In this document: piece after piece, positions 3,394 through 50,799 of the stretch
How the letters are laid out: every line of letters starts with the position of its first letter
How positions within the stretch are numbered: position 1 is the first letter of the stretch
DNA from: Clostridia bacterium
GTDB lineage: Bacteria > Bacillota > Clostridia > TANB77 > CAG-508
Direction of reading: 5' to 3'
NCBI GenBank assembly: GCA_017934475.1
Contig: JAGBJN010000007.1
Coordinates: 11,776-75,775, forward strand
DNA length: 64,000 bases
The notes under the pieces: model-generated
The model's database searches: none
What the model saw: only the letters and a program-made list of their open reading frames with translations
Told to the model about the DNA's origin: nothing
Made by a program: the position numbers and the translations under genes

Positions 3394-3690
3394 ATGGCTA
3401 CTTCAAAAGAGTATAAAGATTTTATATTAGAACAATTAGATTTATTAGATAATGTATCATGCAAGGCCATGATGGGAGAATTTTTGTTATATTATAATAA
3501 TATTTTATTTGGTGGTATTTATGATGATAGATTACTTGTAAAAAAAGTTGATACAAATAAAAAATATAATATGAAGGAACAAACACCTTATGAAGGTGCT
3601 AAACCAATGTATTTAGTAGATGACATAGATAATAAAGAATTATTACAAGAGATTGTAATTGAAACTTGTAAAGGATTAGAAAGTAAATAA
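3394..3690 (+). CDS. TfoX N-terminal domain protein
   Basis: KAMMGEFLLY..FGGIYDDRLLVK..PYEGAKPM. Confidence 0.75.
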   Translation: MATSKEYKDFILEQLDLLDNVSCKAMMGEFLLYYNNILFGGIYDDRLLVKKVDTNKKYNMKEQTPYEGAKPMYLVDDIDNKELLQEIVIETCKGLESK

Positions 3691-3717
3691 TGATTTATCA
3701 TTAGGATTGGAGAAAAA

Positions 3718-4146
3718 ATGATATTAATAAGTGCATGTTTAGTTGGTATGAATTGTAAATATAATGGTAAAAACAACTATAACGAAAAAGCATTAGAACT
3801 TGTGAAAAATGGACAAGCAATACCTATTTGTCCAGAACAATTAGGTGGACTATCAACACCAAGAGATCCATCTGAAATAAAAATAATTGATAATAAAAGA
3901 TATGTAATAAACAATAAAGGTATAGATGTAACAAGTGAATTTGTAAAAGGAGCAAACGAAGTATTAAGATTAGTTAAAGAGTTAAATATTGAAAAAGTTA
4001 TATTACAATCAAGAAGTCCATCTTGTGGAGTTGGTAAAATATATAGCGGAAACTTTGATGGAAAAATAATTGATGGAAATGGTATTTTAGCACAAATGCT
4101 TATAGATAATGGAATTGAAGTTGTAGATATTGAAGATTATAAGTAA
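3718..4146 (+). CDS. DUF523 / 2-thiouracil desulfurase family protein
   Basis: ISACLVG..CKYNG, ICPEQLGGLSTPR, SRSPSCG. Confidence 0.85.
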   Translation: MILISACLVGMNCKYNGKNNYNEKALELVKNGQAIPICPEQLGGLSTPRDPSEIKIIDNKRYVINNKGIDVTSEFVKGANEVLRLVKELNIEKVILQSRSPSCGVGKIYSGNFDGKIIDGNGILAQMLIDNGIEVVDIEDYK

Positions 4147-4175
4147 AAAATGAATAAAGGAGCATATTCTATAAA

Positions 4176-4754
4176 ATGAAAAATATAGATTTTGATGAAA
4201 TAGAGATTAAATATAAAGGTTTGATTGATATTGCTAAAAAAAATATGAGCAGCATTAATGATTTTGTACATGATGAAAATCACATGTATGATGTTGTTCA
4301 TTATACAAAAGAATTAATAAAAAGTATAAATGAAGAAGTTAATATAGATGCATGTATAATAAGTGCATATTGGCATGATGTTGGTAGAACCAAAATAAAT
4401 GAAGGACATGAAAAGTTATCTGCTGAAATGTTAAAAGAAGAAATGAAGAAACAAGGATATGATAATAATCTAATAAATAAATGTTATGAAGCAATTGAGT
4501 ATCATAAATGGAGTATGCAACCTAAAACTATCGAAGGGTTAATAGTTAAAGATGCTGATAAATTAGCTTGGCTAGGCATGGGAAGATGGAATGCTTGTAT
4601 TAACAATAATCAAAAGTTAGACAACATACTTGATTTATTGCCTAGACTAAGAAATGAGTTTTTGTATTTTGAAGAATCAAAACTAATATATGATATAGAA
4701 TGTGTAAATTTAATAAAATATTTATATAAGAAATATATTGATAAAATGAAATAA
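4176..4754 (+). CDS. HD-domain phosphohydrolase
   Basis: HDENH..SAYWHDVG..H..IEYH..DADKL. Confidence 0.8.
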   Translation: MKNIDFDEIEIKYKGLIDIAKKNMSSINDFVHDENHMYDVVHYTKELIKSINEEVNIDACIISAYWHDVGRTKINEGHEKLSAEMLKEEMKKQGYDNNLINKCYEAIEYHKWSMQPKTIEGLIVKDADKLAWLGMGRWNACINNNQKLDNILDLLPRLRNEFLYFEESKLIYDIECVNLIKYLYKKYIDKMK

Positions 4755-4818
4755 TGAAGTATATTTAAATGTAATAAAAAAAGAGAAGATTTTTTTATTA
4801 GTAAAAATGCATTTATAG

Positions 4819-4862
4819 AAAGCAAGTGATTTGTTGAAAACCACTTGCTTTTATGTTAAAAT
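4819..4862 (+). promoter_or_regulatory. overlapping intrinsic terminator and sigmaA promoter
   Basis: AAAGCAAGTG/CACTTGCTTT inverted repeat; TTGAAA 4834-39, 17-nt spacer, TGnTAAAAT ending 4862. Confidence 0.6.
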
Positions 4863-4903
4863 ATAGGAAATATTATGTTTTGAAAGAGGCCTAGTGAAAA
4901 TAT

Positions 4904-5263
4904 ATGGAAAATAAAAGAATATTAAGGTTAAAGAGTAAAATATATATTTTAATTATAGTAACTTTTTTAGGTTGTGCATTATTTGTTTTATCAGGCTGTT
5001 CTAGTATTAAATATGAAACTGATAGAGACAAGATTATACAATCACCTGATAATAGCTATTCAATAACTATTAGATATGACTATGTAAGTCGACCAGATAT
5101 TTATAAAGATGGTAAAATAATATTTAAATATGATGGAAGCGGATTTATGGAAAATGTAGATTGGGATGTAGAGTGGTTATCAGAAAAAGATATATTATTA
5201 TATATTAAATCACCACAAAAAGAAAAATATAATAAAGAAAAGTATTATATTACTATTAATTAA
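4904..5263 (+). CDS. putative lipoprotein
   Basis: basic N-terminus, hydrophobic stretch and LSGC lipobox. Confidence 0.6.
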   Translation: MENKRILRLKSKIYILIIVTFLGCALFVLSGCSSIKYETDRDKIIQSPDNSYSITIRYDYVSRPDIYKDGKIIFKYDGSGFMENVDWDVEWLSEKDILLYIKSPQKEKYNKEKYYITIN

Positions 5264-5326
5264 TGGATGTGGCTAACCAAATAAGTAACTATTTTTAGAA
5301 AATATTAAATAGAAAGAAGAAATATA

Positions 5327-5884
5327 ATGATAGATGTTATTGAAATAACTATAGAAGAATTTGAAAATGATATTTATGATAAATATATAGAATTATTTCC
5401 TGAAGAAGAACAAAGAGAATGGAATAAAATTGTCAAAACATCCAAAAAGGGAATAGAAAAGTTCTATAAAATTATCTACGAAAACAAGACTATTGGATTT
5501 TTCTTACTTGAAAAAATAAATGATGATTATCCTTTTTACATAGACTATTTTTCTATTTATAGGGAATACCAAAATCAAGGATATGGAACTAAAGCTATAA
5601 AAGTTTTATTAAGTAAAATTATAAATAAAAAGGGATTAATTGCTGAAATAGAAACAGAAAGTAAAGATAATCCTATTACTATTAAAAGATTCGAATTTTA
5701 TAAAAGATTAGGATTTAAAAAAATTAAATCAGAATATTTATTATATAATGTTTATTTCACACCAATATTATATAATGATTATAAAGAAATAAATAAAGAA
5801 AAATATGACAAAATATTTTTTGATTATTATGCAATCAATTGTGGGGAAAATGAAGTAAAGCGACATTGTAAAATTATAAAATAA
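5327..5884 (+). CDS. GNAT N-acetyltransferase
   Basis: YIDYFSI..YQNQGYGTK..RFEFYKRLGF. Confidence 0.8.
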   Translation: MIDVIEITIEEFENDIYDKYIELFPEEEQREWNKIVKTSKKGIEKFYKIIYENKTIGFFLLEKINDDYPFYIDYFSIYREYQNQGYGTKAIKVLLSKIINKKGLIAEIETESKDNPITIKRFEFYKRLGFKKIKSEYLLYNVYFTPILYNDYKEINKEKYDKIFFDYYAINCGENEVKRHCKIIK

Positions 5885-5962
5885 AACAAATATAAATTAT
5901 GATAAGTATTTATAAAAAAGATTTAAGATTATTAATAAACCGAAATAAATAGGAGAAAAAAT

Positions 5963-8380
5963 ATGGAAGATAAAAAAGTATATAAATATGATGCATTTAT
6001 AAGTTATAGACATTGTAAATTAGATAAATTTGTTGCAGAGAATTTACATAGAATTTTAGAGACTTATGAATTGCCTAAAAATATTAAAGAAAAATTAAAT
6101 ATAAAATCAAAAACAATAAGAAGAGTTTTTAGAGACCAAGAAGAACTACCTTTATCAAGTAATTTAGAAGATCCAATTATAAGTGCTCTAGAAGATTCAA
6201 AATATCTTATTGTTGTTTGTTCTCCAAGATTAAAAGACTCTTTATGGTGTAAAAAGGAGATAGAAACATTTAAAAAATTAAGAGGAAGAAAAAACATATT
6301 TTGTGTTCTAATTGAAGGTGAGCCAGAAGACTCTTTCCCAGAAGAAGTACTTTTTGATGAACAAGAAGTAACTCTAGAAAATGGAGAGAAAGCAGTAGAA
6401 AGAATAGAAGTAGAACCATTAGCAGCTGATGTAAGAGGTGAAACTGAAAAAGAAGTTCTTAAAAAAATTAAAGAAGAAAAGCTAAGATTAATAGCACCAA
6501 TGTATGGACTAGATTATGATGACTTAAGACAAAGACACAAATTAAGAAGACAAAAAAGAATATTAAATATTTCAATTATTACTGCAATAGCATGTTCTAT
6601 TTTTGCTATATATTCTTTAATAATGCTTATCAAAATAAATAGCCAACAAGATATATTAAAACATCATCAAGCATTAACACTTGCTTCTAAAGCAAATGAA
6701 TATATAAAAGAAGATAATAGATATGAAGCAGTAAAAAATGCGTACCAAGCACTTGTGGAATTTGAAGGAGTTAAAATGCCTTATACTCCAGAAGCGGAAT
6801 ATGCTTTATCAGAAAGTTTAGGAATATATGATATAGGTGCTTCATATAAAGCTGTATCACAAATAAATACCAAAGGAGTTGTTGATTTTGTAAAATCAAG
6901 TCCAAATGGTAAATATGCAGCAGTATATGATGAATCAGAGGAAATAACATTATTTGATACAAATACATTAAATATTATTTTAAAATATAATATAAATAAT
7001 ACGTATACAAATGATAAAATGTTTGGATTTGTAGGTAATGATATATTTGCCTTTATTAATAAAGATAAAAATATAAGTTTAGTTAAAACTGAAACAGGAG
7101 AACTATATACAGAGATAAATAATGAAGGAAGAGGCTTTATTTCATTAAGATGTAGTACAAATGGAGAATATTTAGCATATACAGATTATGAAAAAGTTTA
7201 TATTTATGATGTTAAAGAAAATAAGCAAATAGGTAGTATATCTGAAGAGGACAATTTCTTAAAAGATATATATTTTTCAGAAGATTGTAATTATGTGTTT
7301 GCTGCAACACTAAAAGAAAATTATGATATATATAAAGAAGATAGCATAACTATACATGTTATTGATGCAAAAGAAGGAAAAGAAATAAATAGTATTGATT
7401 TAACAGCAAGTGCCTTTTCAGGGGTAGTAACTAAAGATAATAATGCATACATCCTATTAAATAACAGAGTTGATACAGATGTAAGTATTGTTGTACTATC
7501 ATATGACTATATTAATGGAAATATTAATTGGACAAAGATTATTGAAAAGTCTTGGGGAAAGTTTATAACAAGATCATATGCTGAAAGCACAAATAATATT
7601 GCAATAGTAAACCAAGACAATGTAAATATATTAAATGCTGATAATGGAGAAATAGAAACTACATTTAACACAAGTAGTGAAATTTTGACTATATATACAT
7701 TTACAACTAGTGACTTATATATAACAGTATCAAGTGATGGATCTGTAGATTACATGGATGTAGAAAATAAAAATACTATTGAATATGATGGAAAATATGA
7801 GCTTAATTTAAATGAATATATAGATGTAGAAAAAACAGAAAATGGATTAATATTATTACCATATAATGAAAATAGATTAATAATATATGATGAAAAAGCT
7901 AATAAAGATGCAAAATTAGAAGATATAAGTCTTGATTATCCAAAAAAAGATAATGTTTCAGTTACAGAACAAAAACAGTTAATTGAAGATTATGATATTA
8001 TAAATAAAAATTTAATTAGTAATATTATTTATGATCAAGATAAGAAATTAATATTTGTAAATTATAAAAATGAAGATATTGCAATATATAATGTTGAAAC
8101 AAAAGAACTAATAAAATTATTAAACAATGTAGGAAAGATAAATCATTATTTTGGTAAAGACAAAAATGATAGAATTTATATAGGAGATATATCAGATACA
8201 TATATTCTAGATAAAGATTTCAATAAAGTTGGACATATAAAAAGTTTAAGAAAGTTAGAACAAGATAAAGTTATAATTGCAAATAATAGTAAATTTTATT
8301 CTTTAAAGATATATAATCTAAATGAACTATTAAATGAGGCAAAAGAACTAATTAATAACAAAAATAATGATAATAACTAA
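5963..8380 (+). CDS. TIR domain - transmembrane helix - beta-propeller-like protein
   Basis: YDAFISYRH..VFRD..ALEDSKYLIVVCSP..SLWCKKEI (TIR_2 with Glu); hydrophobic helix at about aa 200-222; WD40-like strands (SPNGKYA, STNGEYLA, FSEDCNYVF). Confidence 0.8.
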   Translation: MEDKKVYKYDAFISYRHCKLDKFVAENLHRILETYELPKNIKEKLNIKSKTIRRVFRDQEELPLSSNLEDPIISALEDSKYLIVVCSPRLKDSLWCKKEIETFKKLRGRKNIFCVLIEGEPEDSFPEEVLFDEQEVTLENGEKAVERIEVEPLAADVRGETEKEVLKKIKEEKLRLIAPMYGLDYDDLRQRHKLRRQKRILNISIITAIACSIFAIYSLIMLIKINSQQDILKHHQALTLASKANEYIKEDNRYEAVKNAYQALVEFEGVKMPYTPEAEYALSESLGIYDIGASYKAVSQINTKGVVDFVKSSPNGKYAAVYDESEEITLFDTNTLNIILKYNINNTYTNDKMFGFVGNDIFAFINKDKNISLVKTETGELYTEINNEGRGFISLRCSTNGEYLAYTDYEKVYIYDVKENKQIGSISEEDNFLKDIYFSEDCNYVFAATLKENYDIYKEDSITIHVIDAKEGKEINSIDLTASAFSGVVTKDNNAYILLNNRVDTDVSIVVLSYDYINGNINWTKIIEKSWGKFITRSYAESTNNIAIVNQDNVNILNADNGEIETTFNTSSEILTIYTFTTSDLYITVSSDGSVDYMDVENKNTIEYDGKYELNLNEYIDVEKTENGLILLPYNENRLIIYDEKANKDAKLEDISLDYPKKDNVSVTEQKQLIEDYDIINKNLISNIIYDQDKKLIFVNYKNEDIAIYNVETKELIKLLNNVGKINHYFGKDKNDRIYIGDISDTYILDKDFNKVGHIKSLRKLEQDKVIIANNSKFYSLKIYNLNELLNEAKELINNKNNDNN

Positions 8381-8452
8381 AAAGTATCAAAAATAACATA
8401 ATATTTGAAACTTAGTAATGATAGTTAAACTTTATAAAAACAGGAGAAATAT

Positions 8453-8518
8453 ATGATAAATGATTTTGATATGCTTATGAAATCATTATCAAATAAAAAA
8501 GGAAAAGAAAATGAATAG
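8453..8518 (+). pseudogene. 21-aa mini-ORF (MINDFDMLMKSLSNKKGKENE) carrying a copy of the RhuM-family gene 3' end
   Basis: 8461-8499 matches 12999-13037 at 38/39 nt in the same reading frame; AGGAG RBS at 8442; overlaps the Nudix ATG at 8511. Confidence 0.6.
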
Positions 8519-9128
8519 TAGGGAAATATTAGAAAAAATAAAAGCACTATCAAAAGAAGAAAAAAGAAAACTTAATTATGATAAATTAAAAGAAATAATG
8601 GAATATATGACTCCAGATGAAATAATAGAATTAAGTAATATAATAGGATATCCAGTATTTACAAGAATGTGTATGGGAGTGTTACAGCATAAATTTGTTT
8701 TATTACAAGATGGAGCTGCTGCAATAATTATTAATAATGAAGGAAAAATATTATTACAAAGTAGAGCAGATAGAGATTTATGGGGATTGCCAGGTGGGTG
8801 TCAGGAACTAGGAGAAAGATTCAAAGACACAATAATTAGAGAAGTCAAAGAAGAGACAAATTTGGATGTTGAAGAAAAAGATTTGGAACTAATTGATATA
8901 GTTTCAGGAAATAGTAGAAGAAATAGTTATCCAAATGGAGATGTTGTAATTAATAATACAGCATTATATTGTATAAGAAAATATTCTGGAGAATTGAGAT
9001 GGGATGAAGAATCAAAAGAGATGAAATTTTTTGATTTAAATAATTTACCTAAAAATCAAAATGATCCAGATTTAATAGAGATATACATGGAATATGAAAA
9101 AAGAAAATCAAAAGATTTTGAAAGATAA
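8511..9128 (+). CDS. Nudix hydrolase
   Basis: Nudix box GGCQELGERFKDTIIREVKEETNL. Confidence 0.85.
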   Translation: MNSREILEKIKALSKEEKRKLNYDKLKEIMEYMTPDEIIELSNIIGYPVFTRMCMGVLQHKFVLLQDGAAAIIINNEGKILLQSRADRDLWGLPGGCQELGERFKDTIIREVKEETNLDVEEKDLELIDIVSGNSRRNSYPNGDVVINNTALYCIRKYSGELRWDEESKEMKFFDLNNLPKNQNDPDLIEIYMEYEKRKSKDFER

Positions 9129-9145
9129 TAACATTAACAGAAAAA

Positions 9146-9280
9146 AAGGAAGTAAGTAATATGGAAGATAAAAAAGAAAAGTTGCCAAGTACAATGATTC
9201 AGTGCGATAAACCAATTTATATAAACATTAACTCAAACCTTTGAAAACACTGGAATTTTTATGTTGAGATTTTTACATTT
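9146..9280 (+). repeat. cassette junction J1 (rbgA-like 5' end | TG 9203-9204 | conserved right arm, type alpha)
   Basis: AAGGAAGT, ATG 9161 MEDKKEKLPSTMIQ-TG|CGATAAACCAATTT..; right arm matches J3 at 65/76 nt. Confidence 0.85.
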
Positions 9281-9328
9281 TTAATAAAAAATAAAATTAA
9301 TAGTTAAAAAAATATAGGAGACTATAAA

Positions 9329-10120
9329 ATGTGGGGAGCAATAATAGGAGATATAGCGGGGTCAATATATGAGTTTAAACAATTAAAAGAAGTAAAATAT
9401 ATAAAGTGTGATGAAATAATTCCAGAAAAAGGTTTTTTTAGTGATGATACAATACTTACAGTTGCAATTGCTAATGCTATTGAAACTGATAGAGATTATG
9501 AAAAATATCTGAAACTATATGCGAAAAAATATGAAAACTATAGACCTGATTTTGAACCATATTTTCGAAGTATTTTTTCACCAGGATTTATAAAATGGGT
9601 AAATGGGCAAAAAGATGGAAATAGCATAGGGAATGGCGCTATGATGAGAATATCACCTGTTGGATATATGTTTGATTCAGAAAAAGAAGTAATCGAAAAT
9701 GTAATACTTGCAACTAAACCATCACATAATTCAGAAGAAGCAATAGAATGTTCAAAAATCATAGCACTTATAATTTATTATGCGAGACAAGGATGGCCAA
9801 AAGATGAAATACTAAAAAAACTTAATATTCAGCTACAATATAAGTCTTTTGAAAAATTCAATGTTACTTGTAAGGAAACTATAGATAATTGTTTATATGC
9901 ATTATTTGCATCTAATAGTTTTGAAGAAAGTATAAAAAGGGTAATATCTTTTGGAGGAGATACAGATACAAATGCTTGTATAGTTGGTTCAATGGCTGAA
10001 GCTATGTATGGAATAAATCCAGTATTAATAGAAGAAGTAAAATTTAAAATACCAAAAGAATTTACAGATATAATAGAAAAAGGATATAAAATAAAAAAGA
10101 TAGAAGATAATGAAAGATAA
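9329..10120 (+). CDS. ADP-ribosylglycohydrolase (DraG/ARH family)
   Basis: GAIIGDIAGS, FSDDT, SIGNGAMMRISP, GGDTDTNACIVG. Confidence 0.9.
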   Translation: MWGAIIGDIAGSIYEFKQLKEVKYIKCDEIIPEKGFFSDDTILTVAIANAIETDRDYEKYLKLYAKKYENYRPDFEPYFRSIFSPGFIKWVNGQKDGNSIGNGAMMRISPVGYMFDSEKEVIENVILATKPSHNSEEAIECSKIIALIIYYARQGWPKDEILKKLNIQLQYKSFEKFNVTCKETIDNCLYALFASNSFEESIKRVISFGGDTDTNACIVGSMAEAMYGINPVLIEEVKFKIPKEFTDIIEKGYKIKKIEDNER

Positions 10121-10130
10121 AAGATAAAAT

Positions 10131-10247
10131 GAAGTGATATAGATGAACGATAATAAAACTAACATTAACTGGGGTATCGGTATTTAAGAAAACCCTGACT
10201 CAATGCATTGAAAATACTTACTTTTTTATGCTTAGATTTTTACACTT
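10131..10247 (+). repeat. cassette junction J2 (TG 10170-10171, right arm type beta)
   Basis: GAAGTGATATAG-ATG 10143 MNDNKTNIN-TG|GGGTATCGGTATTT..; aligns without gaps to the J1, J3 and J4 arms. Confidence 0.9.
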
Positions 10248-10277
10248 TTTTATAAAAAATAAGAGAAAGAGGAAAAA

Positions 10278-11318
10278 ATGAAATATATAGAAAGAACAAG
10301 CAAGTTAATTAAAGATTATTTTAGTATATTATCCCAAAACTATCCAGATTGGCTAGATGAATACATTGAAACAGAAAGAATGTTAAAACAGCAATATATA
10401 AGTGTTACATGTGGTAAGATTTATTCAAAATTATTTAATTATAATGATTATAGCTCATTAGATCATTCAATAGCAGTAGCATTAATAATTTGGAATTTTA
10501 CACATGATAAAAAGCAAACTTTATCAGGATTATTTCATGATATTGCAACACCTGCATTTAAGCATTGTATAGATTTCTTAAATGGTGATTATATGAACCA
10601 AGAATCGACAGAAGAATTGACGAAAACATTAATTAAAGATTCAAAAGACATAATGAAATTACTTGAAAGAGATAATATAGAATTAGATGAAGTTTGTGAC
10701 TATCATATTTATCCAATTGCAGATAATGATACACCAATGCTTTCTGCTGATAGATTAGAATATTCATTATCAAATGATTTAATAGTATTTAAAACAAATA
10801 CACTCGAAGATATTAGAGAAATATATAATGATATAGAAGTTCAAACAAATGAAAATGGAATTATAGAATTAGGTTTCAAAACAAAAAAGATAGCAAGACA
10901 ATTTGTGAAAAATACTTCTAGATTATCAGTAGCTTATCGAGATGATGCAACTAGATTTTATATGCAAGCTATTGCTGATATATTAAGAAAAGTAAGTGAA
11001 GATGGATTAATAAATAAGATAGATTTATACGAATTAAAGGAAAGTGAAGTAATAGATATTATAAAAAAATCAAACTATAGTGAAGCGTTTGAAGAATTAA
11101 TAAATGCAACAAAAGTACATACTTCAACCGAAGAACCAAAAGATGTTTACTATGTTAAGCATGGCGCAAAAGTAAGATATATAGATCCACTATTTAATGG
11201 AAAAAGAATATCTAAAGAATGTAAAATTGCACAAAAAATGATAGAAAAAAATTTATCATATAATATGGACAAGTATGTTTTTTTAGATAAAAGCTTAAAT
11301 ATATTAAATGAAAAATAA
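10278..11318 (+). CDS. HD-domain phosphohydrolase (dNTPase-like superfamily)
   Basis: SSLDHSIAV..GLFHDIATPAFKH..SADRLEY. Confidence 0.8.
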   Translation: MKYIERTSKLIKDYFSILSQNYPDWLDEYIETERMLKQQYISVTCGKIYSKLFNYNDYSSLDHSIAVALIIWNFTHDKKQTLSGLFHDIATPAFKHCIDFLNGDYMNQESTEELTKTLIKDSKDIMKLLERDNIELDEVCDYHIYPIADNDTPMLSADRLEYSLSNDLIVFKTNTLEDIREIYNDIEVQTNENGIIELGFKTKKIARQFVKNTSRLSVAYRDDATRFYMQAIADILRKVSEDGLINKIDLYELKESEVIDIIKKSNYSEAFEELINATKVHTSTEEPKDVYYVKHGAKVRYIDPLFNGKRISKECKIAQKMIEKNLSYNMDKYVFLDKSLNILNEK

Positions 11319-11323
11319 AGCGT

Positions 11324-11440
11324 AAGGAAGTGATATAGATGGAGAATAGTACAAACATTAACTGCGAAAAACCAATTTATAGAAACTTTTACTCAAAGCG
11401 TTGATAATACTGGATTTTTAATATTGAGATTTTTACATTT
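11324..11440 (+). repeat. cassette junction J3 (TG 11363-11364, right arm type alpha)
   Basis: AAGGAAGTGATATAG-ATG 11339 MENSTNIN-TG|CGAAAAACCAATTT.. Confidence 0.9.
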
Positions 11441-11460
11441 TTTATAGAAGGAGAAGAATT

Positions 11461-11898
11461 ATGGAAAATAAATATGAATTTTTTATAGCTGGAAGAAATA
11501 GAAATAAAGAAAATATATTAAAAATATGTGATTTATTTGATAAATATAATATATCTTATTATTGCTTTTTGAAAAATGAAGATAGTTGGGGATATGGAAA
11601 TAAAAATCAAACACAAGAAGAAAAGCAACGAGAATTTGAATCATTAGATTTAAAAAGTGATATTGTATTGAATTTGTTTAATCAAGATTTAGAAGGGGAA
11701 AAGAGTTCAAAAAACTTTTTACTAGTATTACCGGCTGGAAAAGCAGCACATATAGAATCAGGAATAGCATATGGACTAGGAAAAAAATGCTATGCTATTG
11801 GAGAATATGAAGCAACAGATACTTTATATAATATATTTGAAAAAATTTTTGATAATGAAAATCAATTAGAAGAATTTTTAAAAGAGTATAAAGGATAA
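11461..11898 (+). CDS. nucleoside 2-deoxyribosyltransferase-like protein
   Basis: FFIAG..DL..LLVLPAGKAAHIESGIAYGLGK (E-x-G-x-A motif). Confidence 0.6.
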   Translation: MENKYEFFIAGRNRNKENILKICDLFDKYNISYYCFLKNEDSWGYGNKNQTQEEKQREFESLDLKSDIVLNLFNQDLEGEKSSKNFLLVLPAGKAAHIESGIAYGLGKKCYAIGEYEATDTLYNIFEKIFDNENQLEEFLKEYKG

Positions 11899-11912
11899 GC
11901 TTAGATTAGAAT

Positions 11913-12029
11913 AAGGAAGTGATGGAAATGGAGAATAGTACAAACATTAACTGGGGTATCGGCATTTTAGAAAAACCTAGCTAAAAGTATTGGAAACACA
12001 CACTTTCTTAAAAATAGATTATTACATAT
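11913..12029 (+). repeat. cassette junction J4 (TG 11952-11953, right arm type beta)
   Basis: AAGGAAGTGA..ATG 11928 MENSTNIN-TG|GGGTATCGGCATTT..; left 24 nt identical to J3, right arm matches J2 at 56/76 nt. Confidence 0.9.
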
Positions 12030-12057
12030 TTAAGAAAAATATAAAAAGGAGGCAGTT

Positions 12058-13050
12058 ATGGATAATAAAAATGAAGTTTTGATTTATGAAGATAAAGATG
12101 GTATTACAAAAGTAAATGTAACATTCACTGATGAAGATATTTGGCTTACACAAAGTCAATTGGCAGAAATATATAAAACATCTCGTGAAAATATTACAAT
12201 GCATATTTCTAATATTTATAAAGATAATGAATTACCTAAAGATTCAACTTGTAAGAAATTCTTACAAGTTCAAAATGAAGGTGCAAGAAGCGTTAAAAGA
12301 AATATTGACCACTATAATTTAGATATGATAATTGCCTTAGGATATAGAGTTCAATCAGAAATAGCAGTTAGATTTAGAATATGGGCTACTCAAAGATTAC
12401 ACGAATACATACAAAAAGGTTTTACAATGGACGATGAAAGATTAAAACAAGGTGGCAATAGATACTTTAAAGAATTACTACAACGAATTAGAGATATTCG
12501 TTCAAGTGAAAGAAACTTTTATCAACAAGTAACAGATATATATGCAACAAGCATAGATTATGATCCAAGAGCAGATATAACTAAAAAGTTTTTTGCAACA
12601 GTTCAAAACAAACTACACTATGCAGTACATGAACATACAGCAGCAGAATTAATTTATGACAGAGTAGATAATGAAAAAACTTATGTTGGTATGACAAATT
12701 TTAAAGGAGATTATGTTACAATAGATGATGTAAAAATTGCCAAAAACTATTTATCAGAAATTGAATTACAAAGACTAAATTTACTAGTATCACAATTCTT
12801 AGATTTTGCAGAATTACAAGCGTTAGAACAAAGAACAATGAAAATGCAAGATTGGGTAGAAGAATTAGATAATCAAATATTACTTAATAGAAGAAAAATA
12901 TTAGAAGGTAATGGTAAAATATCACATGAAGAGGCAATAGCAAAAGCAGAAAAAGAATTTCAAATATATAGAGAAAGAGAAATGAAAGAATTACAAAGTG
13001 ATTTTGATATGCTTATGAAATCATTACCAAATAAAAATGAAAGTGAGTAA
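12058..13050 (+). CDS. RhuM-family (virulence protein) DNA-binding protein
   Basis: WLTQSQLAEIY..HISNIY..YNLDMIIALGYRV..FRIWAT..KGFTMDDERLK..IRDIRSSE. Confidence 0.85.
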   Translation: MDNKNEVLIYEDKDGITKVNVTFTDEDIWLTQSQLAEIYKTSRENITMHISNIYKDNELPKDSTCKKFLQVQNEGARSVKRNIDHYNLDMIIALGYRVQSEIAVRFRIWATQRLHEYIQKGFTMDDERLKQGGNRYFKELLQRIRDIRSSERNFYQQVTDIYATSIDYDPRADITKKFFATVQNKLHYAVHEHTAAELIYDRVDNEKTYVGMTNFKGDYVTIDDVKIAKNYLSEIELQRLNLLVSQFLDFAELQALEQRTMKMQDWVEELDNQILLNRRKILEGNGKISHEEAIAKAEKEFQIYREREMKELQSDFDMLMKSLPNKNESE

Positions 13051-13059
13051 GAAGTTAAT

Positions 13060-13449
13060 ATGAAAAAAATAATAATTGCTGGTTCTGCAAAGTTTTACAA
13101 AGAAGCACTAGAATTGAAAAAAGAATTAGAAAATATGAACTATAATGTAATAGATTATCCAAGAAATATAAATGCAAACATTGAAGAAGAATATAAACAA
13201 GCATATGAAAGATTTTATGATAGTTTAAATAAAACAGATGATTTAATTTTATTAAATTTAGATAAAAATGGAATAGAAGGTTATATAGGGTATGAATCAT
13301 TTGCAGAATTAAGTAATTTGGTGGTAAAGAAAATACAAGAAGATAATAATCATAAAATATATATCTACAAGATGCCAAGTAAAGAAGTTGGATGTTATGA
13401 TGAAATAAAACATTTCTTAGAACTAGGATATATTGAAATATTTAAATAA
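13060..13449 (+). CDS. hypothetical protein, NDT/flavodoxin-like fold candidate
   Basis: IIIAGS..D.LILLN..GYIGYESFAEL pattern. Confidence 0.45.
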   Translation: MKKIIIAGSAKFYKEALELKKELENMNYNVIDYPRNINANIEEEYKQAYERFYDSLNKTDDLILLNLDKNGIEGYIGYESFAELSNLVVKKIQEDNNHKIYIYKMPSKEVGCYDEIKHFLELGYIEIFK

Positions 13450-13591
13450 AGGAAGTGATAAAATGGCTAACAAAGATAATAATAAAGAAGGGTTTTCTAA
13501 AATGTCGATCAACTGGGATAGTACGAATTATCTAAACACTTCTGAAAAGTATTAGAAAATCAACATTTTTTGAAAATTTTAATCTTCGTGA
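13449..13591 (+). repeat. cassette junction J5 (TG 13514-13515, divergent right arm)
   Basis: AAGGAAGTGA..ATG 13463 MANKDNNKEGFSKMSIN-TG|GGATAG..; AAAGTATTAGAAA in register with J4 AAAGTATTGGAAA. Confidence 0.8.
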
Positions 13592-13641
13592 TTTAATATA
13601 AATTATATAAAATAAATTAGTAATCGAAAAAAGGAGAAGAA

Positions 13642-14181
13642 ATGGATAATTATATAATAATACATGGTAGTTTTGGATCAAAAGACGGAAATTGGTTTCC
13701 ATGGCTAAAAAATGAATTAGAAAAAGATAATAAAGATGTTGTTGTACCACAAATGCCAATTGGAGTAGAAAACCAGAATTTTGAAAATTGGTCCAAAGTG
13801 TTAAATGAATTGAATATAAATCATAATACTACTATAATTGCACATAGTATAGCGCCAATATTTGTATGCAAGTATTTAATTACAAATAAGATTAAAGTTA
13901 AAAAGCTTATATTTGTTTGTGGATTTAATAATTATTTAGGGATAGACAAAGAATTTGATGCAGTTAATGAACCAATGTTTATAGATAATTTTGAAGATAT
14001 AAAAGAATATTGTAACGATATTATTTGCTATTATTCAGATAATGATCCATATGTTAAATTTGAAACAGAAAAAGCATTTGCAGATGCTATTTCAAATAAT
14101 CAGTATGTAATAAAAAATGGTGGACATATAAATACTGAAAGCGGGTATACAAAATTTGAGGAAATATTGAGAGTACTATAG
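13642..14181 (+). CDS. RBBP9/YdeN-family alpha/beta hydrolase
   Basis: IIHG..NWFPWL..IAHSI..SDNDPYV..GGHIN. Confidence 0.85.
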   Translation: MDNYIIIHGSFGSKDGNWFPWLKNELEKDNKDVVVPQMPIGVENQNFENWSKVLNELNINHNTTIIAHSIAPIFVCKYLITNKIKVKKLIFVCGFNNYLGIDKEFDAVNEPMFIDNFEDIKEYCNDIICYYSDNDPYVKFETEKAFADAISNNQYVIKNGGHINTESGYTKFEEILRVL

Positions 14182-14196
14182 AAGGAGGAGAGGTTA

Positions 14197-15021
14197 ATGA
14201 CACTTTTAGCTTCTTGGGCTGCAATTGATACACATGGTACATCATCTGCTTATATTGTTTCTGATAGTAGAATAAGTTGGGGAAATAAAAAAAATTTTGA
14301 TTTTGGGAAAAAAGTATTTGCATCAAAAAAATATCCGGAAATATTTGGATATGCTGGAGATGTTTTATTTCCATCAATAGTCTTATCTCAAATAGTAGAT
14401 ATGATAGATACAGATGTACTATTCAATGAATCTATGAAATGTTCAGAAAAGAATAAGATTGTTTATGAAAAACTTCAGTATTCATTTTCAAAATATCCTG
14501 ATGTATATGGTGATAATCCAATTCAAATTATACATATATCAAGAGATACTATATTTGATAAATATCCAGTTTTTCATCATTATTTATTAACATGGAATAG
14601 AAAATATGGATGGAGCAAAGAAGAAAAAGTGTTTCCAACTAAATCTGGAATTTTGAATGTTTTAGGATCTGGAAAGGAAGAGTTTAATAAAAACTATAAT
14701 GAAAGATATCAACATTGTAGAAACAAATCTACAAGTAGAAATGTTTTTCATTGTTTTATAGATACATTGTATAATATACAGGATACTATGTGCGGAGGGC
14801 CGCCTCAATTGGTAGGAATATACAGAAAACCCAATACAGCTGCACAAAATTATGGAATTGTATATAATCAAAAAAGATTTTTGTTAGGAATGGAAGTTCC
14901 TAAAGAATCTATGTATAATAAAGTTGAATGGCGTAATGAAAATTTTGAATTATGTGATGGAGTATTAAAGAAAAAATTACAAAATGCTTCTAGTCAAAAA
15001 AATTTGATACGTCGAAATTAA
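14197..15021 (+). CDS. hypothetical protein with proteasome-beta/Ntn-hydrolase-like signature
   Basis: N-terminal M-T, SDSR, K..F, GYAG, LGSG, D..CGG motifs in the order seen in HslV, Anbu and proteasome beta subunits. Confidence 0.55.
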   Translation: MTLLASWAAIDTHGTSSAYIVSDSRISWGNKKNFDFGKKVFASKKYPEIFGYAGDVLFPSIVLSQIVDMIDTDVLFNESMKCSEKNKIVYEKLQYSFSKYPDVYGDNPIQIIHISRDTIFDKYPVFHHYLLTWNRKYGWSKEEKVFPTKSGILNVLGSGKEEFNKNYNERYQHCRNKSTSRNVFHCFIDTLYNIQDTMCGGPPQLVGIYRKPNTAAQNYGIVYNQKRFLLGMEVPKESMYNKVEWRNENFELCDGVLKKKLQNASSQKNLIRRN

Positions 15022-15142
15022 TTAAGGCAACTCCCTGGAAGCTATAAAAAGCTGCGAGGTGCTATGTCTATCTGGAGCAAATTGCTCCAGTAGACTACTA
15101 GGGTATTAACATAAAAATAATATAATTAGAAAGAAGGAATAT

Positions 15143-16357
15143 ATGATTAATATAAACAACAAAATTTGGGATAAATTAAGACTTAAAGATGTAGAAAAAT
15201 ATTTAGATACTATAGAAGATGATGAAACATTTTTTATGGAATTTAAGGAAGAAGATATAAGAAATGTACAATTAACAAAAGAAATTTCTGCATTTGCAAA
15301 TTCGTTTGGAGGGTATGTTTTTTTAGGCGTAAACGATTCTAAAAAAATTGTTGGATGTAGTAGCAAGTGGACAGAATTAAGAATAAATACAATAGTATGT
15401 AATGGAATTTCTCCTATTCCACAATTTGATATAAAAAAATTTAAGCTTAAAAATTCAAATACATTATATATTATAAAGGTAGAAGAGGGGGTAAATCCTC
15501 CATATATTACGAATGATGGATATATATATCATAGAGTATCATCTTCATCAGACAGAGTGAAAGATGCAAATACGCTTAATAATTTATACTTGAGAAATCA
15601 GAATAACATAAAAGATGTTGAAAATAAAATATATATTCCAGAAATATCAGGTACAATTCCAAATAATTTGTGCGGTTATGTTGATTTTGGATTTTCTTTA
15701 ATTTCTAAAAATATTGAAAAAACAAAAGAAAAAGTTAGAAAAGCTGATATTGAGAAGATATCAGAAAAATTAAAAGAATATAAACAAAAATATAGTATTT
15801 CAAAAGTAGGATATTCACTATCTATAACTATAGGTGAGCCTATAATGAAAATGGGAGATCAACCAATTTTAACAACTGGAGGACTTTCAAATTTTATGGA
15901 AATACTGCCAGATGGTAGTTTTAGGTGTAGAATAATTATTTGTTCAGAAAATGATAGCAGTATAGCAAATATTTCTTTAATAACTATGATACATTCGTTA
16001 TTTAAAGAAATATATGAAGTAGTATTTGGAAATAATTTTGTTTCGAATTTTATTCAAGCAAAAAAATATGAAAAGCTTACGGTTTTAAAACTGTTTCAAC
16101 CTAAAATAGTAGTAACAGGAGAATCAAAATATGTAGAAAGATTTAACAAGTTATTTAATGATCATATTATAAAATATGGTAATAATATAATTTCTACTAA
16201 TAATAGAATTCCTTTAAATGGGTTTGTTAATATAGATAAAAGCTTGTTTGATTTAAATAAAGTAAAATTTAATAATGATAACTTATATGGCCAATTGTTT
16301 TATACTAGTTATTTTTTACTTGGATATATTGATGATTTTTATATAGATAATGATTAA
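15143..16357 (+). CDS. AlbA_2 (Schlafen-like) domain protein
   Basis: ETFFMEFKE..KEISAFANSFGGYVFLGVND..PPY..YHRV. Confidence 0.8.
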   Translation: MININNKIWDKLRLKDVEKYLDTIEDDETFFMEFKEEDIRNVQLTKEISAFANSFGGYVFLGVNDSKKIVGCSSKWTELRINTIVCNGISPIPQFDIKKFKLKNSNTLYIIKVEEGVNPPYITNDGYIYHRVSSSSDRVKDANTLNNLYLRNQNNIKDVENKIYIPEISGTIPNNLCGYVDFGFSLISKNIEKTKEKVRKADIEKISEKLKEYKQKYSISKVGYSLSITIGEPIMKMGDQPILTTGGLSNFMEILPDGSFRCRIIICSENDSSIANISLITMIHSLFKEIYEVVFGNNFVSNFIQAKKYEKLTVLKLFQPKIVVTGESKYVERFNKLFNDHIIKYGNNIISTNNRIPLNGFVNIDKSLFDLNKVKFNNDNLYGQLFYTSYFLLGYIDDFYIDND

Positions 16358-16366
16358 GGAGTTTAA

Positions 16367-17572
16367 ATGGGATATAATGTAGCAGCATATTTGAGATTAT
16401 CAAAAGAAGATAATGAAAATATGGAATCAAATAGTATAATTAATCAAAGAGAATTAATAGAACAATATATTAGAAGTAAAAGTGATTTACAATTAGTAGA
16501 TTACTATATTGATGATGGGTATAGTGGTACTAATTTTAATAGACCAGGATTTAGAAGATTATTACAAGATATGAAAAATAAAAAGATTAATTGTATAATT
16601 GTAAAAGATTTATCAAGATTTGCAAGAAGTCATATAGAAGCGGATATGTATTTTGAAAATATCTTTCCTGCCTTGAATATTAGATTTATATCTGTGATAG
16701 AAAATATAGATAGTTTTGAAAATCCAGATTCAATGGACAACCTTATTGTTCCATTTAAAAACTTATTAAATGATGCTTATGCAAAAGATATATCTAAAAA
16801 GGTAAGAAGTGCATTATTAACTAAAAGATTAAATGGAGAATTTATTGGAACTTCTGCTACATATGGATATTTAAAAGATCCAAAAGATAAACATAAATTA
16901 ATAATTGATAAAGTTGCGTCAAAATATGTTATTCAAATATTTGATAGTGCGAAGAAAGGAAAAACTGCAAGTGAAATAGCAAATGAGTTAAATAAAAGTG
17001 ATGTATTAACACCATATACATATAAAGTCAAAAATGATAATATTGGAGTAGATAAAAAGTGGAATGCCAAAATGATTAATGTAATACTTCAAAATAGAGT
17101 ATACATTGGCGAATTAATTCAAGGTAAAAAGAAGGTAGAAAATTATCGTACACATAAACTGGTTTCAACCAATAAAGATGAATGGATAATAACTGAAAAT
17201 CACCATGAGCCAATTATATCTAAAGAAGATTTTGATAATGTTCAAGAAATAATTAAAAATAATAAATGTGCTAGAAGTAATAAAGAAAAAGATTTATTTT
17301 ATAGTTTTTTGAAGTGTGCAGATTGTGGAAGTGCATTCACATTAAGAAAAGTTAAAAATTATGAATACTATCATTGTACGTCGTATGTAAGAAATGGCTC
17401 ATGTACAAACCATTCTATAAGAAAAGATAAACTAGTTGGATTAGTAATTGAAGAACTAAATAAAAAGTTTAAAAGAAATAAAATTAATGTTTTAACAAGA
17501 GATATTTTATTAAAAAATATAAATAGTATCATTATATTTCAAAATGGAGAAGTTACAATAAATTTCAAATAA
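16367..17572 (+). CDS. large serine recombinase (resolvase + recombinase + zinc ribbon), short C-terminus
   Basis: AAYLRLS (catalytic Ser12), DDGYSGTNFNRPGF, VKDLSRFAR, YGY, HEPIIS, CADCG..C..C. Confidence 0.95.
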   Translation: MGYNVAAYLRLSKEDNENMESNSIINQRELIEQYIRSKSDLQLVDYYIDDGYSGTNFNRPGFRRLLQDMKNKKINCIIVKDLSRFARSHIEADMYFENIFPALNIRFISVIENIDSFENPDSMDNLIVPFKNLLNDAYAKDISKKVRSALLTKRLNGEFIGTSATYGYLKDPKDKHKLIIDKVASKYVIQIFDSAKKGKTASEIANELNKSDVLTPYTYKVKNDNIGVDKKWNAKMINVILQNRVYIGELIQGKKKVENYRTHKLVSTNKDEWIITENHHEPIISKEDFDNVQEIIKNNKCARSNKEKDLFYSFLKCADCGSAFTLRKVKNYEYYHCTSYVRNGSCTNHSIRKDKLVGLVIEELNKKFKRNKINVLTRDILLKNINSIIIFQNGEVTINFK

Positions 17573-17650
17573 AGGAGTGAATATAGATGGAGAAAGAACA
17601 AGAAAATAGTTATCACAAAATCAACCTTAACTGGTATCCAGGACATATGG
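17572..17650 (+). other. attR-like site: element-supplied rbgA RBS and N-terminus | TG | rbgA body
   Basis: AAGGAGTGAATATAG-ATG MEKEQENSYHKINLN-TG|GTATCCAGGACAT; same layout as the J1-J5 left arms. Confidence 0.75.
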
Positions 17651-18507
17651 CAAAAACTAAAAAACAAATAATAGAAGATTTGAAGTTAATAGATATAGTT
17701 GTAGAAATATTAGATGCAAGAATACCAAAGTCTAGTAGAAATCCTGATTTGGCTGTATGGACAAAAGGAAAGAAAAAGATAATAGTGTTAAATAAATATG
17801 ATTTAGCAGATGAGAAAGAAAATAAAAAATGGATTTCATATTTTCAAAAACAAGGGATGTCTGTTGTACTTACTAATTCTGTTTCAGGTGATGGAATAAA
17901 TAATGTAATAAAAGAAATAGAAAAAGTTGGTGAAGAAAATAAGACAAACTTTGCTCAAAAAGGTAGAACAGGTAGAGCATTAAGAGTAATGGTAACAGGA
18001 ATTCCTAATGTAGGTAAATCTTCTTTTATAAATAGAATAACAAAGAAAACATCAGCTGGTGTTGGAAATAAACCAGGCTTTACAAAACAAAAACAATGGA
18101 TAAGAGTTAATGAAAAGATAGATTTAATGGATACTCCAGGTATTTTATGGCCTAAATTAGAACCAGAAGAAGTTGCGATTAATTTAGCTATAACTGGTAC
18201 AATAAAAGACGAGATAATTGAAAAGATTGAGGTAGCATATTATTTACTAAAATATTTACTAGAAAATAATAGAGAAGAACTTTGCAACAGATATTCTTTA
18301 AAAATAGAAGATATTGATGAAATATTAAGTAATGAGAATCAAATGGAAAATGAAAATATAATGGAAGTATTATATTTAATAGGTAAAAAGAGAGGTGCTC
18401 TTGTATCAGGTGGACAAGTTGATGAAGACAAGGTTGCAAATCTTTTACTAGATGAATTTAGAAGCGGAAAACTTGGAAAAATAACTATTGAGAAAGTTGG
18501 AGATTAA
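17587..18507 (+). CDS. rbgA: ribosome biogenesis GTPase RbgA (YlqF)
   Basis: NWYPGHMAK, DARIP.SSRNP, NKYD, GIPNVGKSS, DTPG. Confidence 0.97.
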   Translation: MEKEQENSYHKINLNWYPGHMAKTKKQIIEDLKLIDIVVEILDARIPKSSRNPDLAVWTKGKKKIIVLNKYDLADEKENKKWISYFQKQGMSVVLTNSVSGDGINNVIKEIEKVGEENKTNFAQKGRTGRALRVMVTGIPNVGKSSFINRITKKTSAGVGNKPGFTKQKQWIRVNEKIDLMDTPGILWPKLEPEEVAINLAITGTIKDEIIEKIEVAYYLLKYLLENNREELCNRYSLKIEDIDEILSNENQMENENIMEVLYLIGKKRGALVSGGQVDEDKVANLLLDEFRSGKLGKITIEKVGD

Positions 18508-21880: not shown

Positions 21881-21955
21881 TGGTGACCCCTACGGGAATC
21901 GAACCCATGATTCAGCCTTGAGAGGGCTGCGTCTTAACCGCTTGACCAAGGGGCC
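21881..21955 (-). tRNA. tRNA-Glu (anticodon CTC)
   Basis: reverse complement GGCCCCTTGGTCAAGCGGTTAAGACGCAGCC-CTCTCAA-GGCTG..GGTTCGATTCC..ACCA forms a cloverleaf with encoded CCA. Confidence 0.95.
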
Positions 21956-50771: not shown

Positions 50772-50799
50772 AGTAACATGTAAAATGATTAAAAAAATT

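Follow-up and report, generated by a model that had tools for sequence, protein, structure and literature searches.

A probable tandem array of small mobile units built at a single TG within ylqF/rbgA of a Clostridia bacterium

How do unrelated genes come to stand in line on one strand, each parted from the next by a copy of the same spacer? The question is raised by a 64,000-nucleotide (nt) stretch of a Clostridia bacterium genome (contig JAGBJN010000007.1, positions 11,776 to 75,775; hereafter the window), in which all open reading frames (ORFs) of 4904–18507 are on the plus strand and the genes in the span from 8.4 to 18.5 kb are parted by homologous spacers of 140–200 nt each. An initial annotation of the window had described four such spacers (J1–J4) as junctions, each with a left arm, a TG dinucleotide and a right arm, and had proposed that the two arms assort independently across the TG. 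From the evidence below, the region is likely to be a tandem array of small mobile units, added successively at a single TG within ylqF (also called rbgA), the ribosome biogenesis GTPase gene at its right end. Five complete units are bounded by J1–J5 and the working ylqF site, and a recombinase is present in the last unit only. The array is laid out as follows, with unit lengths counted from TG to TG.

9146–9300, plus strand: junction J1, with a left arm (ribosome-binding site (RBS) and short ORF from the ATG at 9161), TG at 9203–9204 and a right arm of type alpha.
9329–10120, plus strand: ADP-ribosylglycohydrolase cassette gene (Pfam PF03747, E 3e-36), in a unit of 967 bp.
10131–10265, plus strand: junction J2, with a left arm, TG at 10170–10171 and a right arm of type beta.
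10278–11318, plus strand: HD-like cassette gene, 346 amino acids (aa; weak Pfam HD match, E 0.003), in a unit of 1193 bp.
11323–11452, plus strand: junction J3, with a left arm, TG at 11363–11364 and an alpha right arm.
11461–11898, plus strand: cassette gene o145, 145 aa, with no family match in Pfam, NCBIfam or PADLOC, in a unit of 589 bp.
11913–12047, plus strand: junction J4, with a left arm, TG at 11952–11953 and a beta right arm.
12058–13449, plus strand: two-gene unit of 1562 bp, with a RhuM family gene (12058–13050; Pfam PF13310, E 2.5e-108; PADLOC PDC-S05, E 1e-141) and a 129-aa ORF (13060–13449).
13450–13612, plus strand: junction J5, with a left arm, TG at 13514–13515 and a right arm of type gamma; left end of the recombinase-bearing unit, which is 4118 bp long (13516–17631).
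13642–16357, plus strand: cargo of the recombinase unit, namely a serine hydrolase (13642–14181), a 274-aa ORF (14197–15021) and a Schlafen AlbA_2 protein (15143–16357), assigned by Pfam.
16367–17572, plus strand: large serine recombinase, 401 aa (Pfam Resolvase, Recombinase and Zn_ribbon_recom).
17573–17633, plus strand: working ylqF 5′ end on the recombinase unit, with RBS AAAGGAGTGA, ATG at 17587, 15 codons and the TG of Trp-16 at 17632–17633.
17587–18507, plus strand: ylqF/rbgA, ribosome biogenesis GTPase (NCBIfam TIGR03596, E 2e-100, 335.6 bits against a cutoff of 208.2).

Recounting of the arms upheld the pattern that had been described, with small corrections. The 24-nt left arm reported as identical in J3 and J4 occurs exactly twice in the window (11339–11362 and 11928–11951), followed each time by TG, and the right arms of these two junctions do differ, agreeing at only 42 of 76 positions (11 of the first 26). 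J1 and J3 are alike in their alpha right arms (65/76, and 23/26 in the first 26) and agree at 14 of 24 positions in their left arms. The likeness of the beta right arms of J2 and J4 was also real, but the counts are 57/76 and 23/26 rather than the 56/76 and 22/26 given; their left arms agree at 18 of 24. The order along the array is alpha-beta-alpha-beta, as stated. Among 20,000 random pairs of 76-mers drawn from this AT-rich window, the mean agreement was 24.3 (standard deviation 4.4, maximum 43), and against so low a background all four right arms are homologous, with the alpha and beta pairs far above it. The initial annotation had overlooked two further copies, J5 (TG 13514) and the working ylqF 5′ end (TG 17632), as well as the nature of the left arms as ylqF 5′ ends, the serine recombinase beside the working copy, and less sharp mosaic boundaries away from the TG.

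Within its own genome (1.54 Mb) the junction family was found in this array only: five nhmmer hits with E ≤ 2.6e-21 lay on one contig, and the next best had E values of 3.3 and 9.9. With J3 as query, plain DNA comparison to 41 relatives yielded one clear match only, and a covariance model was required to find more; nhmmer on fetched loci was less sensitive than the covariance model. A model built from sequence only had matches in 12 of 42 genomes of the genus, and a second model found junctions in 51 of 151 genomes of the order, representing 18 of 28 genera and all five families sampled. Most genomes with multiple matches had them clustered on one contig, with up to six matches. One match in the genus (G015:C135) did not align like a junction and was set aside. 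Gamma right arms precede recombinase units in three other genomes (G019, G011 and G188) and stand one unit further upstream in a fourth (G063). For the analysis of the exchange point we aligned 76 junction matches from 32 genomes.

Four kinds of evidence place that point at the TG. First, the T is conserved in 75 of 75 and the G in 73 of 75 sequences, with variable flanking positions: position −1 is C in 59, T in 8 and G in 6, and position +2 is G in 58, C in 12, T in 3 and A in 2. Serine recombinases make 2-bp staggered cuts, and their crossovers leave an invariant, non-palindromic 2-bp core with variable neighbours. Second, linkage between the arms is lost at the TG. These tests used 70 full junctions, after six truncated rows had been dropped (three rows represented working ylqF 5′ ends or were cut off at a contig end, and three had no left arm). 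Among 84 pairs at least 85% identical in −24..−1, 6 were at least 85% identical in +2..+28 and 71 were below 65%; the matching figures within the right arm were 17/48 and 18/33. Single linkage at 80% gave 37 left types and 43 right types, with 231 same-left and 49 same-right pairs. Six pairs shared both types, compared to 4.6 ± 2.3 in 2000 permutations (30% of which reached at least 6), so that left and right types show no association; inside the right arm, linkage was retained (35 same-both pairs, ~8 expected).

Third, in a strict megablast comparison of all loci against all, 25 of the 56 block ends that lay within 150 nt of a TG fell in −6..+6, in counts that see each pair from both sides and include relatives that are not independent. 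Blocks starting near the TG did so at −6, −3, +3 or +6, and those ending there did so at +1 or +3. In a maximum chi-square breakpoint scan of 2415 pairs, 16 were informative; 12 of these had breakpoints in −8..+6 and four at −21, +29, +29 and +30, in an estimate that is blurred by the conserved core. Spearman correlations between segment identities, taken across all pairs, were close to zero throughout and carried no information. Finally, two pairs of loci bracket the switch. In G041 and G023 the same right arm (98.8% identity over 243 nt) follows left arms that are unrelated and remain different right up to position −1 (AAC before the TG in one, TCG in the other). G019 and G093 are 92.9% alike over 560 nt of recombinase 3′ end and left arm and diverge directly after the TG, where one runs into the ylqF body (TG followed by G) and the other into an alpha right arm (TG followed by C). 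Because position −1 goes with the left arm and position +2 with the right arm, the exchange point is bracketed to the TG itself.

The independent assortment of arms and the TG crossover core that the initial annotation had proposed are thus borne out, the former by tests equivalent to a comparison of left-arm and right-arm trees: over 70–76 junctions from 32 genomes, arm types are not associated and block ends pile up at the TG. The claim that breakpoints lie at the TG rather than scattered held for the 25 of 56 block ends within 6 nt of it, but not for further, fuzzier boundaries at ~+45..+65 and at RBS boxes, to which we return. Tandem duplication, against which site-specific exchange had been set, is excluded because the units carry unrelated genes and single units recur in other families at 96–100% protein identity.

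What is being exchanged becomes clear from the left arms, which are displaced 5′ ends of ylqF/rbgA. Every junction opens with an RBS (AAGGAAGTGA), then has an ATG and a short series of codons ending in N-I-N, followed by TG(G). The start of ylqF has the same layout, with an RBS, an ATG, 15 codons and then AAC, TG and GTATCCAGGACATATG, coding for W-Y-P-G-H-M, which places the TG at the first two bases of the Trp-16 codon. A genome of another family has a ylqF start of the same layout with junctions before it. When 31 ylqF 5′ regions were compared (30 from the genus and one from another family), the DNA after TGG was conserved and the DNA before it was hypervariable in sequence and in length (4 to ~35 codons). 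Between genomes, similarity of the ylqF body stops at −3 to −6 of the working TG, and several junction left arms match working ylqF 5′ ends of other genomes, as in the junctions of G055 and the ylqF of G056. Right arms as decayed ylqF body were also considered and found unsupported, with ungapped identities of 24–33 of 76 against 24.3 ± 4.4 at random. The junction consensus GGAtTTATGG does resemble ylqF GGaCATATGG, one base out of register, and this likeness may reflect shared recognition.

Individual loci add further arrangements of these arms. The G023 locus (L050) has the same right arm (96–100%) twice, ~900 nt apart (TG at 9154 and 10053), after two unrelated left arms. One G023 left arm ends in TCG instead of AAC, as do working ylqF 5′ ends of G057 and G018. 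In G027 (L051, 9795–10030), two junctions stand back to back with 110 gene-free nt between their cores, the second with TA for TG, and this double junction looks like an empty or decayed unit.

Does the array carry an enzyme fit to act at such a site? The 401-aa protein of the last unit has a resolvase-type catalytic domain (Pfam PF00239, E 5.9e-22), with which the TnpX catalytic domain aligns over residues 6–116 (E 1e-25), as well as recombinase and zinc-ribbon domains (PF07508, E 5e-22; PF13408, E 7e-15). Its nucleophile, S12, is invariant in 8 aligned homologues, and large serine integrases are its nearest solved relatives, with Foldseek matches to SprA, Bxb1, PhiC31 and LI (E 1e-16 to 3e-10). 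The best NCBIfam match was CcrB at 114 bits (E 7e-33; CcrC, 72.7 bits), and as the cutoff is 900 the recombinase is not a Ccr. Together with seven homologues from other arrays, the protein falls in a size range of 396–416 aa. In an AlphaFold2 model, helices 353–367 and 378–384 are joined by ~10 residues at the place where LI integrase bears its coiled-coil, with predicted local distance difference test (pLDDT) values of 80–91 there, and the model thus depicts a recombinase with no coiled-coil insert in its zinc ribbon. Most of the best 150 cluster representatives are 510–570 aa long, with alignments that stop near residue 370; end-to-end alignment was seen for nine clusters of 403–433 aa.

The short recombinase clade is linked to ylqF. 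In loci found by recombinase similarity alone, ylqF lay co-directionally within 2.5 kb of 32 of the 43 short ORFs that had room downstream. By hand count this held for 25 of 29 intact ORFs of 396–424 aa, 10 of which abut ylqF, with the Trp codon 35–93 nt past the recombinase stop. Of the 66 ORFs above 435 aa in length, 21 had ylqF within 2.5 kb and 9 abutted it. All 39 junction matches in the recombinase loci, over 29 loci, were on the recombinase strand, and when recombinase and ylqF are not adjacent, there is often a junction after the recombinase stop codon. The recombinase is internal to the array in G179, G147 and G172. In one genome (G015:C5; loci L055 and L093) the ylqF-adjacent short recombinase is broken, with two TAA codons in the match and pieces of 184 and 236 aa. 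Nine loci from Bacilli, Erysipelotrichia and Bacillota metagenome-assembled genomes (MAGs; L177, L185–L187, L217, L220, L223, L225 and L228) have two clade recombinases in tandem, the upstream one apparently 520–560 aa, followed by ylqF; ylqF targeting seems older than loss of the coiled-coil. The coiled-coil of large serine recombinases is an insert in the zinc-ribbon domain that governs site pairing and, to our knowledge, sets directionality in all large serine integrases studied. In LI integrase, deletion of the coiled-coil left site binding normal, abolished intermolecular integration and gave an unregulated resolvase that acted within one molecule and was moderately efficient on attL × attR (PMC3783163). 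The natural short enzyme may, by analogy, act on any pair of junctions with no directionality factor.

Single units have been transferred between families. The o145 protein is identical at 145 of 145 residues in a genome of another family (G130), where the DNA is near-identical to the window from 43 nt before the o145 ATG, across the gene and the RBS and over the complete left arm, as far as AACTGGG, after which identity falls to ~50%. The HD unit (window 10227–11367) has 96% protein and 95.6% DNA identity to a genome of another genus (G093), in a match that ends 4 nt past the TG. Two genomes of different families (G043 and G063) share 94% DNA identity over 3853 nt, including a 416-aa recombinase. 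This shared stretch (L046, 7235–11058; L158, 1502–5332) holds a serine hydrolase, a junction, a 316-aa ORF, the near-identical 416-aa recombinase and a ylqF start, and looks like a recent cross-family transfer of a whole array end. Arrays of the genus sit between a conserved backbone (GGDEF, IreB, RuvX, DUF1292 and a 158-aa gene) and ylqF followed by mini-RNase III. In four genomes (G019, G011, G043 and G041; loci L040, L043, L045 and L048), homologues of the HD-like gene (60–62%) are flanked by the 158-aa backbone gene and hpt; junctions cannot be recognised there, and these genes may be fixed former cassettes. Related loci are annotated as uncultured Clostridia, Clostridium sp. and Bacilli MAGs from human, ruminant, rabbit and chicken guts.

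The window itself is present in full in four runs of one animal-gut study and in part in 15 runs of eight other studies. Population evidence came from Logan contigs of four ruminant-gut runs of four other studies, at a likeness of at least 90%, and parts of the window with no contig cover were not taken as absent. Runs outside this contig comparison that contain a fraction of 0.21–0.39 of the words were given no weight. The whole of one contig (X7 record 24, 4122 nt) corresponds to 13520–17633 and spans the recombinase unit between its two TGs. Contig starts also fall at 13520 and 10167 (X5 record 1), and contig ends at 11364 (X5 record 2), 11951 (X7) and 11947 (X9). A joint of 10166 to 13511 in X7, at which six letters could be assigned to either flank, connects the left arm of J2 with the right arm of J5, and three units are missing from it. 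In one contig the left arm of the recombinase unit (17633) continues into a foreign right arm rather than ylqF, as would be expected had a new unit entered at the working site. Assembled from mixed communities, these contigs show that such forms exist, not how frequent they are.

At its left, the array is preceded by a variable stretch and by what is probably the native ylqF upstream region together with the left edge of the inserted DNA. The relevant features are these.

4823–4874, plus strand: hairpin and promoter-like site TTGAAA-17-TAAAAT with TG (site 4834–4862; promoter scan, 10/12 match).
8455–8507, plus strand: short ORF copying the C-terminal tail of the RhuM gene, a remnant (direct repeat D8, 8458–8515 against 12996–13053, 84% identical).
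8511–9128, plus strand: NUDIX hydrolase gene of the unit upstream of J1 (Pfam PF00293, E 5e-16; PADLOC candidate family PDC-S07, E 4e-11).

The sequence GCTTGCTTTTATGTTAAAATA of the first feature also sits directly 5′ of ylqF in two other genomes of the genus (G003 and G047), and blastn gave matches of 89–92% to two other loci. Between it and J1 lie a 119-aa ORF, a GNAT gene, a TIR-WD40 protein, the RhuM-tail remnant and the NUDIX gene. The repeat of the RhuM tail before the NUDIX gene suggests that an older RhuM unit was lost or overwritten there. Encoded in the same variable stretch, the 805-aa TIR-WD40 protein (5963–8380) has an N-terminal TIR domain (TIR_2, E 1.5e-10; ThsB_TIR, E 3.7e-06) and WD40 beta-propeller repeats, with no PADLOC match. 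TfoX_N, 2-thiouracil desulfurase and HD-domain genes lie at 3394–4754, upstream of the putative native ylqF promoter; because TfoX_N and 2-thiouracil desulfurase families adjoin junctions elsewhere (L040 and L047), the variable region may extend to the left of 4823. Rfam matches above the gathering score in the window were limited to a T-box leader (50794–51026, 110 bits), a 6S RNA (31876–32060, 97 bits) and a tRNA (21884–21955, minus strand).

These observations suggest how the array could be built. The target TG opens the Trp codon of the conserved W-Y-P-G-H-M motif of ylqF, and each unit ends in a substitute ylqF 5′ end consisting of an RBS, an ATG and 4–35 codons ending in N-I-N; because of this ending, insertion would rebuild an intact ylqF. 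The old 5′ end would be shifted upstream and fused at the TG to the conserved right arm (~100 nt) of the incoming unit, creating a junction that reads as an orphan ORF of 14–30 codons. As the left arm of such a junction would belong to the upstream unit and the right arm to the downstream unit, the arms would assort independently. The 401-aa recombinase, most likely the catalyst, would make a 2-bp staggered cut at the TG, insert circular units at the working ylqF site and delete units by recombining any two junctions, and recombinase-free units (0.6–1.6 kb, one or two genes) would be moved in trans. The array would be read through from the upstream ylqF promoter. Circular intermediates, a directionality-free reaction arising from coiled-coil loss and this read-through are all features that we infer.

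Several observations weigh against this account, and it is best judged together with the alternatives they would favour. Not all boundaries are at the TG. Some highly similar blocks have their start within the right arm, at ~+45..+65 or +90..+130; of the strict block ends, five are at +40..+69 and seven at +90..+129; and the o145 and HD blocks begin ~57 nt after the upstream TG. Contig joints occur in the RBS box (13451 to 10131, with 9 shared letters) and just before a gene RBS (11444 to 10266), and for the serine hydrolase gene a shared identity of 91% is confined to the stretch between ATG and stop, with flanks that differ. Boundaries of this kind indicate that some other exchange process acts too, and that the first 28–57 nt of the right arm (alpha, beta or gamma), together with the left arm, can be exchanged relative to the gene they flank. 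For them, homologous exchange in conserved boxes is the simplest reading. The same observations would fit a mosaic made entirely by homologous recombination or gene conversion after DNA uptake, among conserved boxes (the RBS GGAAGTGAT, the AAYATHAAC-TGG core and the TTGAGATTTTTACA box), with no dedicated recombinase at the TG. We consider this unlikely as an account of the array. At the switch the partners share only 2 to 4–5 bases (TG; AACTG or TGGG), too few for homologous exchange; identity falls there from ~100% to ~50%; block ends concentrate in a 13-nt span at the TG (25/56) instead of spreading over conserved boxes of 10–25 nt; and a recombinase clade is tied to exactly this site. Kinship and shared descent do inflate the pair counts. 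The population evidence consists of assembled contigs from mixed communities at the likeness given above, and the short side of the joint of 10166 to 13511 is only 26 letters long.

The enzyme raises a second set of difficulties for insertion of units at the TG by the 401-aa recombinase. Its activity and the circular forms are inferred, and the AlphaFold2 model is middling overall (mean pLDDT 67.7), with the zinc-ribbon part at 80–91. Since LI integrase with its coiled-coil deleted is inactive in intermolecular integration, a natural enzyme of this kind would need some other way to synapse sites for insertion. Moreover, four arrays (G041, G022, G055 and G027) have no recombinase of this clade nearby, as judged by tblastn at 1e-5 over 8–20 kb. 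Exchange at the TG could accordingly be real and the work of another enzyme, either a tyrosine integrase or a serine recombinase of 520–560 aa encoded elsewhere, with the 401-aa gene as cargo or relic. Other large serine recombinases occur in 31 of 41 genomes of the genus, some of the longer relatives precede ylqF (the 9 of 66 that abut it), and streptococcal integrative and conjugative elements (ICEs) enter the rbgA 5′ end by tyrosine integrases (PMC4701971). Such a division of roles is nonetheless very unlikely, for in many lineages the short recombinase gene comes last in its unit, immediately followed by the substitute 5′ end. Among the 14 ORFs of 4904–18507, Pfam matched no tyrosine integrase and no conjugation gene, and the serine enzyme was the one recombinase it detected. 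Tyrosine recombinases have overlaps of 6–8 bp, and an invariant non-palindromic 2-bp core fits serine enzymes, not these.

The junctions were also searched for signs of a regulatory function. Rfam at gathering thresholds matched nothing in them, the folding energies of five junctions were no better than those of shuffled sequences (z −1.75 to +1.38), and no inverted repeat was common to the five. A scan gave 105 promoter-like sites against 111.8 ± 11.5, so that these are not enriched, and 0 terminator-like sites in 4700–17700 against 1.3 ± 1.2 in shuffles. That the junctions are chiefly regulatory modules, each a translated leader peptide with a promoter or leader, kept for gene expression and modular through selection rather than insertion history, is most improbable: the retained RBS of the short ORFs, the synonymous-type variation of the N-I-N codons (ATT/ATC/ATA and AAC/AAT), a right arm conserved over ~100 nt, beyond the need of a 25–30-bp half-site, and the lack of terminator-like sites noted above would suit it, but descent from working ylqF 5′ ends explains the codon conservation, the searches just described gave no structural or promoter signal, and the sharp switch at the TG and the transfer of units between families are left unexplained. 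A regulatory role may hold in part for the outer right arm.

How does an array built by successive insertion at the ylqF TG compare to known systems? In staphylococcal cassette chromosome (SCC and SCCmec) elements, the large serine recombinases CcrAB or CcrC insert elements at the 3′ end of rlmH with the frame preserved; the units span tens of kb, and composites contain tandem units parted by direct repeats of the target, with and without a recombinase. The array resembles SCC in having a serine recombinase, one end of one conserved housekeeping gene as target, a preserved frame, tandem units and recombinase-free units among them. It is unlike SCC in its target, the 5′ end of ylqF, in its units of 0.6–4 kb with one to four genes, and in its single 401-aa enzyme, predicted to have no coiled-coil; each unit here must also provide its target gene with an RBS, a start codon and N-terminal codons. 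The ssrA islands of Dehalococcoides, as described by McMurdie et al. (2011; PMC3146451), are tandem insertions at a single-copy essential gene with direct target repeats and a CcrB-like integration module; some islands have no such module and were proposed to be cis-mobilizable. They share with the array tandem serine-recombinase units at an essential gene, some with no integration genes. They differ in using the 3′ end of the tmRNA gene, a 20-bp repeat and a 540-aa integrase with a second small recombinase and four more module genes, in their large size, and in that they need not rebuild a coding 5′ end.

The target gene itself has precedents. Streptococcal ICEs insert in the rbgA 5′ end such that the N-terminus stays usable, sometimes with the upstream region replaced (Ambroset et al., 2016; PMC4701971), and Tn5253 has its attB in rbgA (Santoro et al., 2018; PMC6079316). 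These elements have the target gene in common with the array, and for the ICEs of Ambroset et al. the same 5′ end, but they use tyrosine integrases and direct repeats of 12–54 bp and are large conjugative elements, not single-gene arrays. The array also fits the concept of cis-mobilizable elements (CIMEs) that accrete in tandem, with units bounded by recombination sites, some of them recombinase-free, at one attachment site, and the same layout recurs in other genomes. A literature search on rbgA/ylqF with a serine recombinase, or on integron-like serine-recombinase cassettes, which did not cover subscription journals and supplements, found no description of such an array. SCC and the Dehalococcoides ssrA islands thus already provide examples of serine recombinases that insert DNA at one end of an essential gene, with units then accumulating in tandem. 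New here are one-gene units with conserved arms that each supply an RBS, a start codon and N-terminal codons, the ylqF 5′ end as target, and a recombinase that appears to have no coiled-coil. Because units must supply the N-terminal codons of their target, the N-terminus of an essential GTPase would be a record of past insertions. An enzyme of ~400 aa active in both directions with no partner protein would bear on how site pairing is controlled, and its small size and defined 2-bp core would give it practical interest.

Among the cargo are NUDIX, ADP-ribosylglycohydrolase, RhuM, Schlafen-like, KilA-N/Bro-N and uracil-DNA-glycosylase-like genes. PADLOC had no match for 10 of 12 island proteins and matched two to candidate-defence families; given these matches, and since single units move between bacterial families in the guts of animals and humans, accessory or defence genes may plausibly be exchanged through the array in organisms that have no cultured members. 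Integrons offer a further parallel in organisation. They have the tyrosine recombinase IntI, an attI site and attC cassettes; attC sites are imperfect inverted repeats that fold as single strands, and the promoterless cassettes depend on a platform promoter. Like integrons, the array has co-directional, mostly one-gene and mostly recombinase-free units beside a recombinase gene, downstream of one promoter-like region; units are common to distant hosts, and new ones would enter at one fixed site beside the platform. Unlike integrons, it has a serine enzyme, no folded-hairpin signature, an insertion site in an essential gene and a recombinase that is itself mobile and can become internal. With no tyrosine recombinase and no folded sites, it is not an integron. 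We tentatively raise the possibility that it is the serine-recombinase counterpart of one: a chromosomal gene-capture platform, widespread in small low-GC gut Clostridia, in which an enzyme of ~400 aa with no coiled-coil would insert, excise and reshuffle single-gene cassettes at one ylqF TG with no directionality factor, the cassettes would rebuild ylqF, and the array would be co-transcribed with it.

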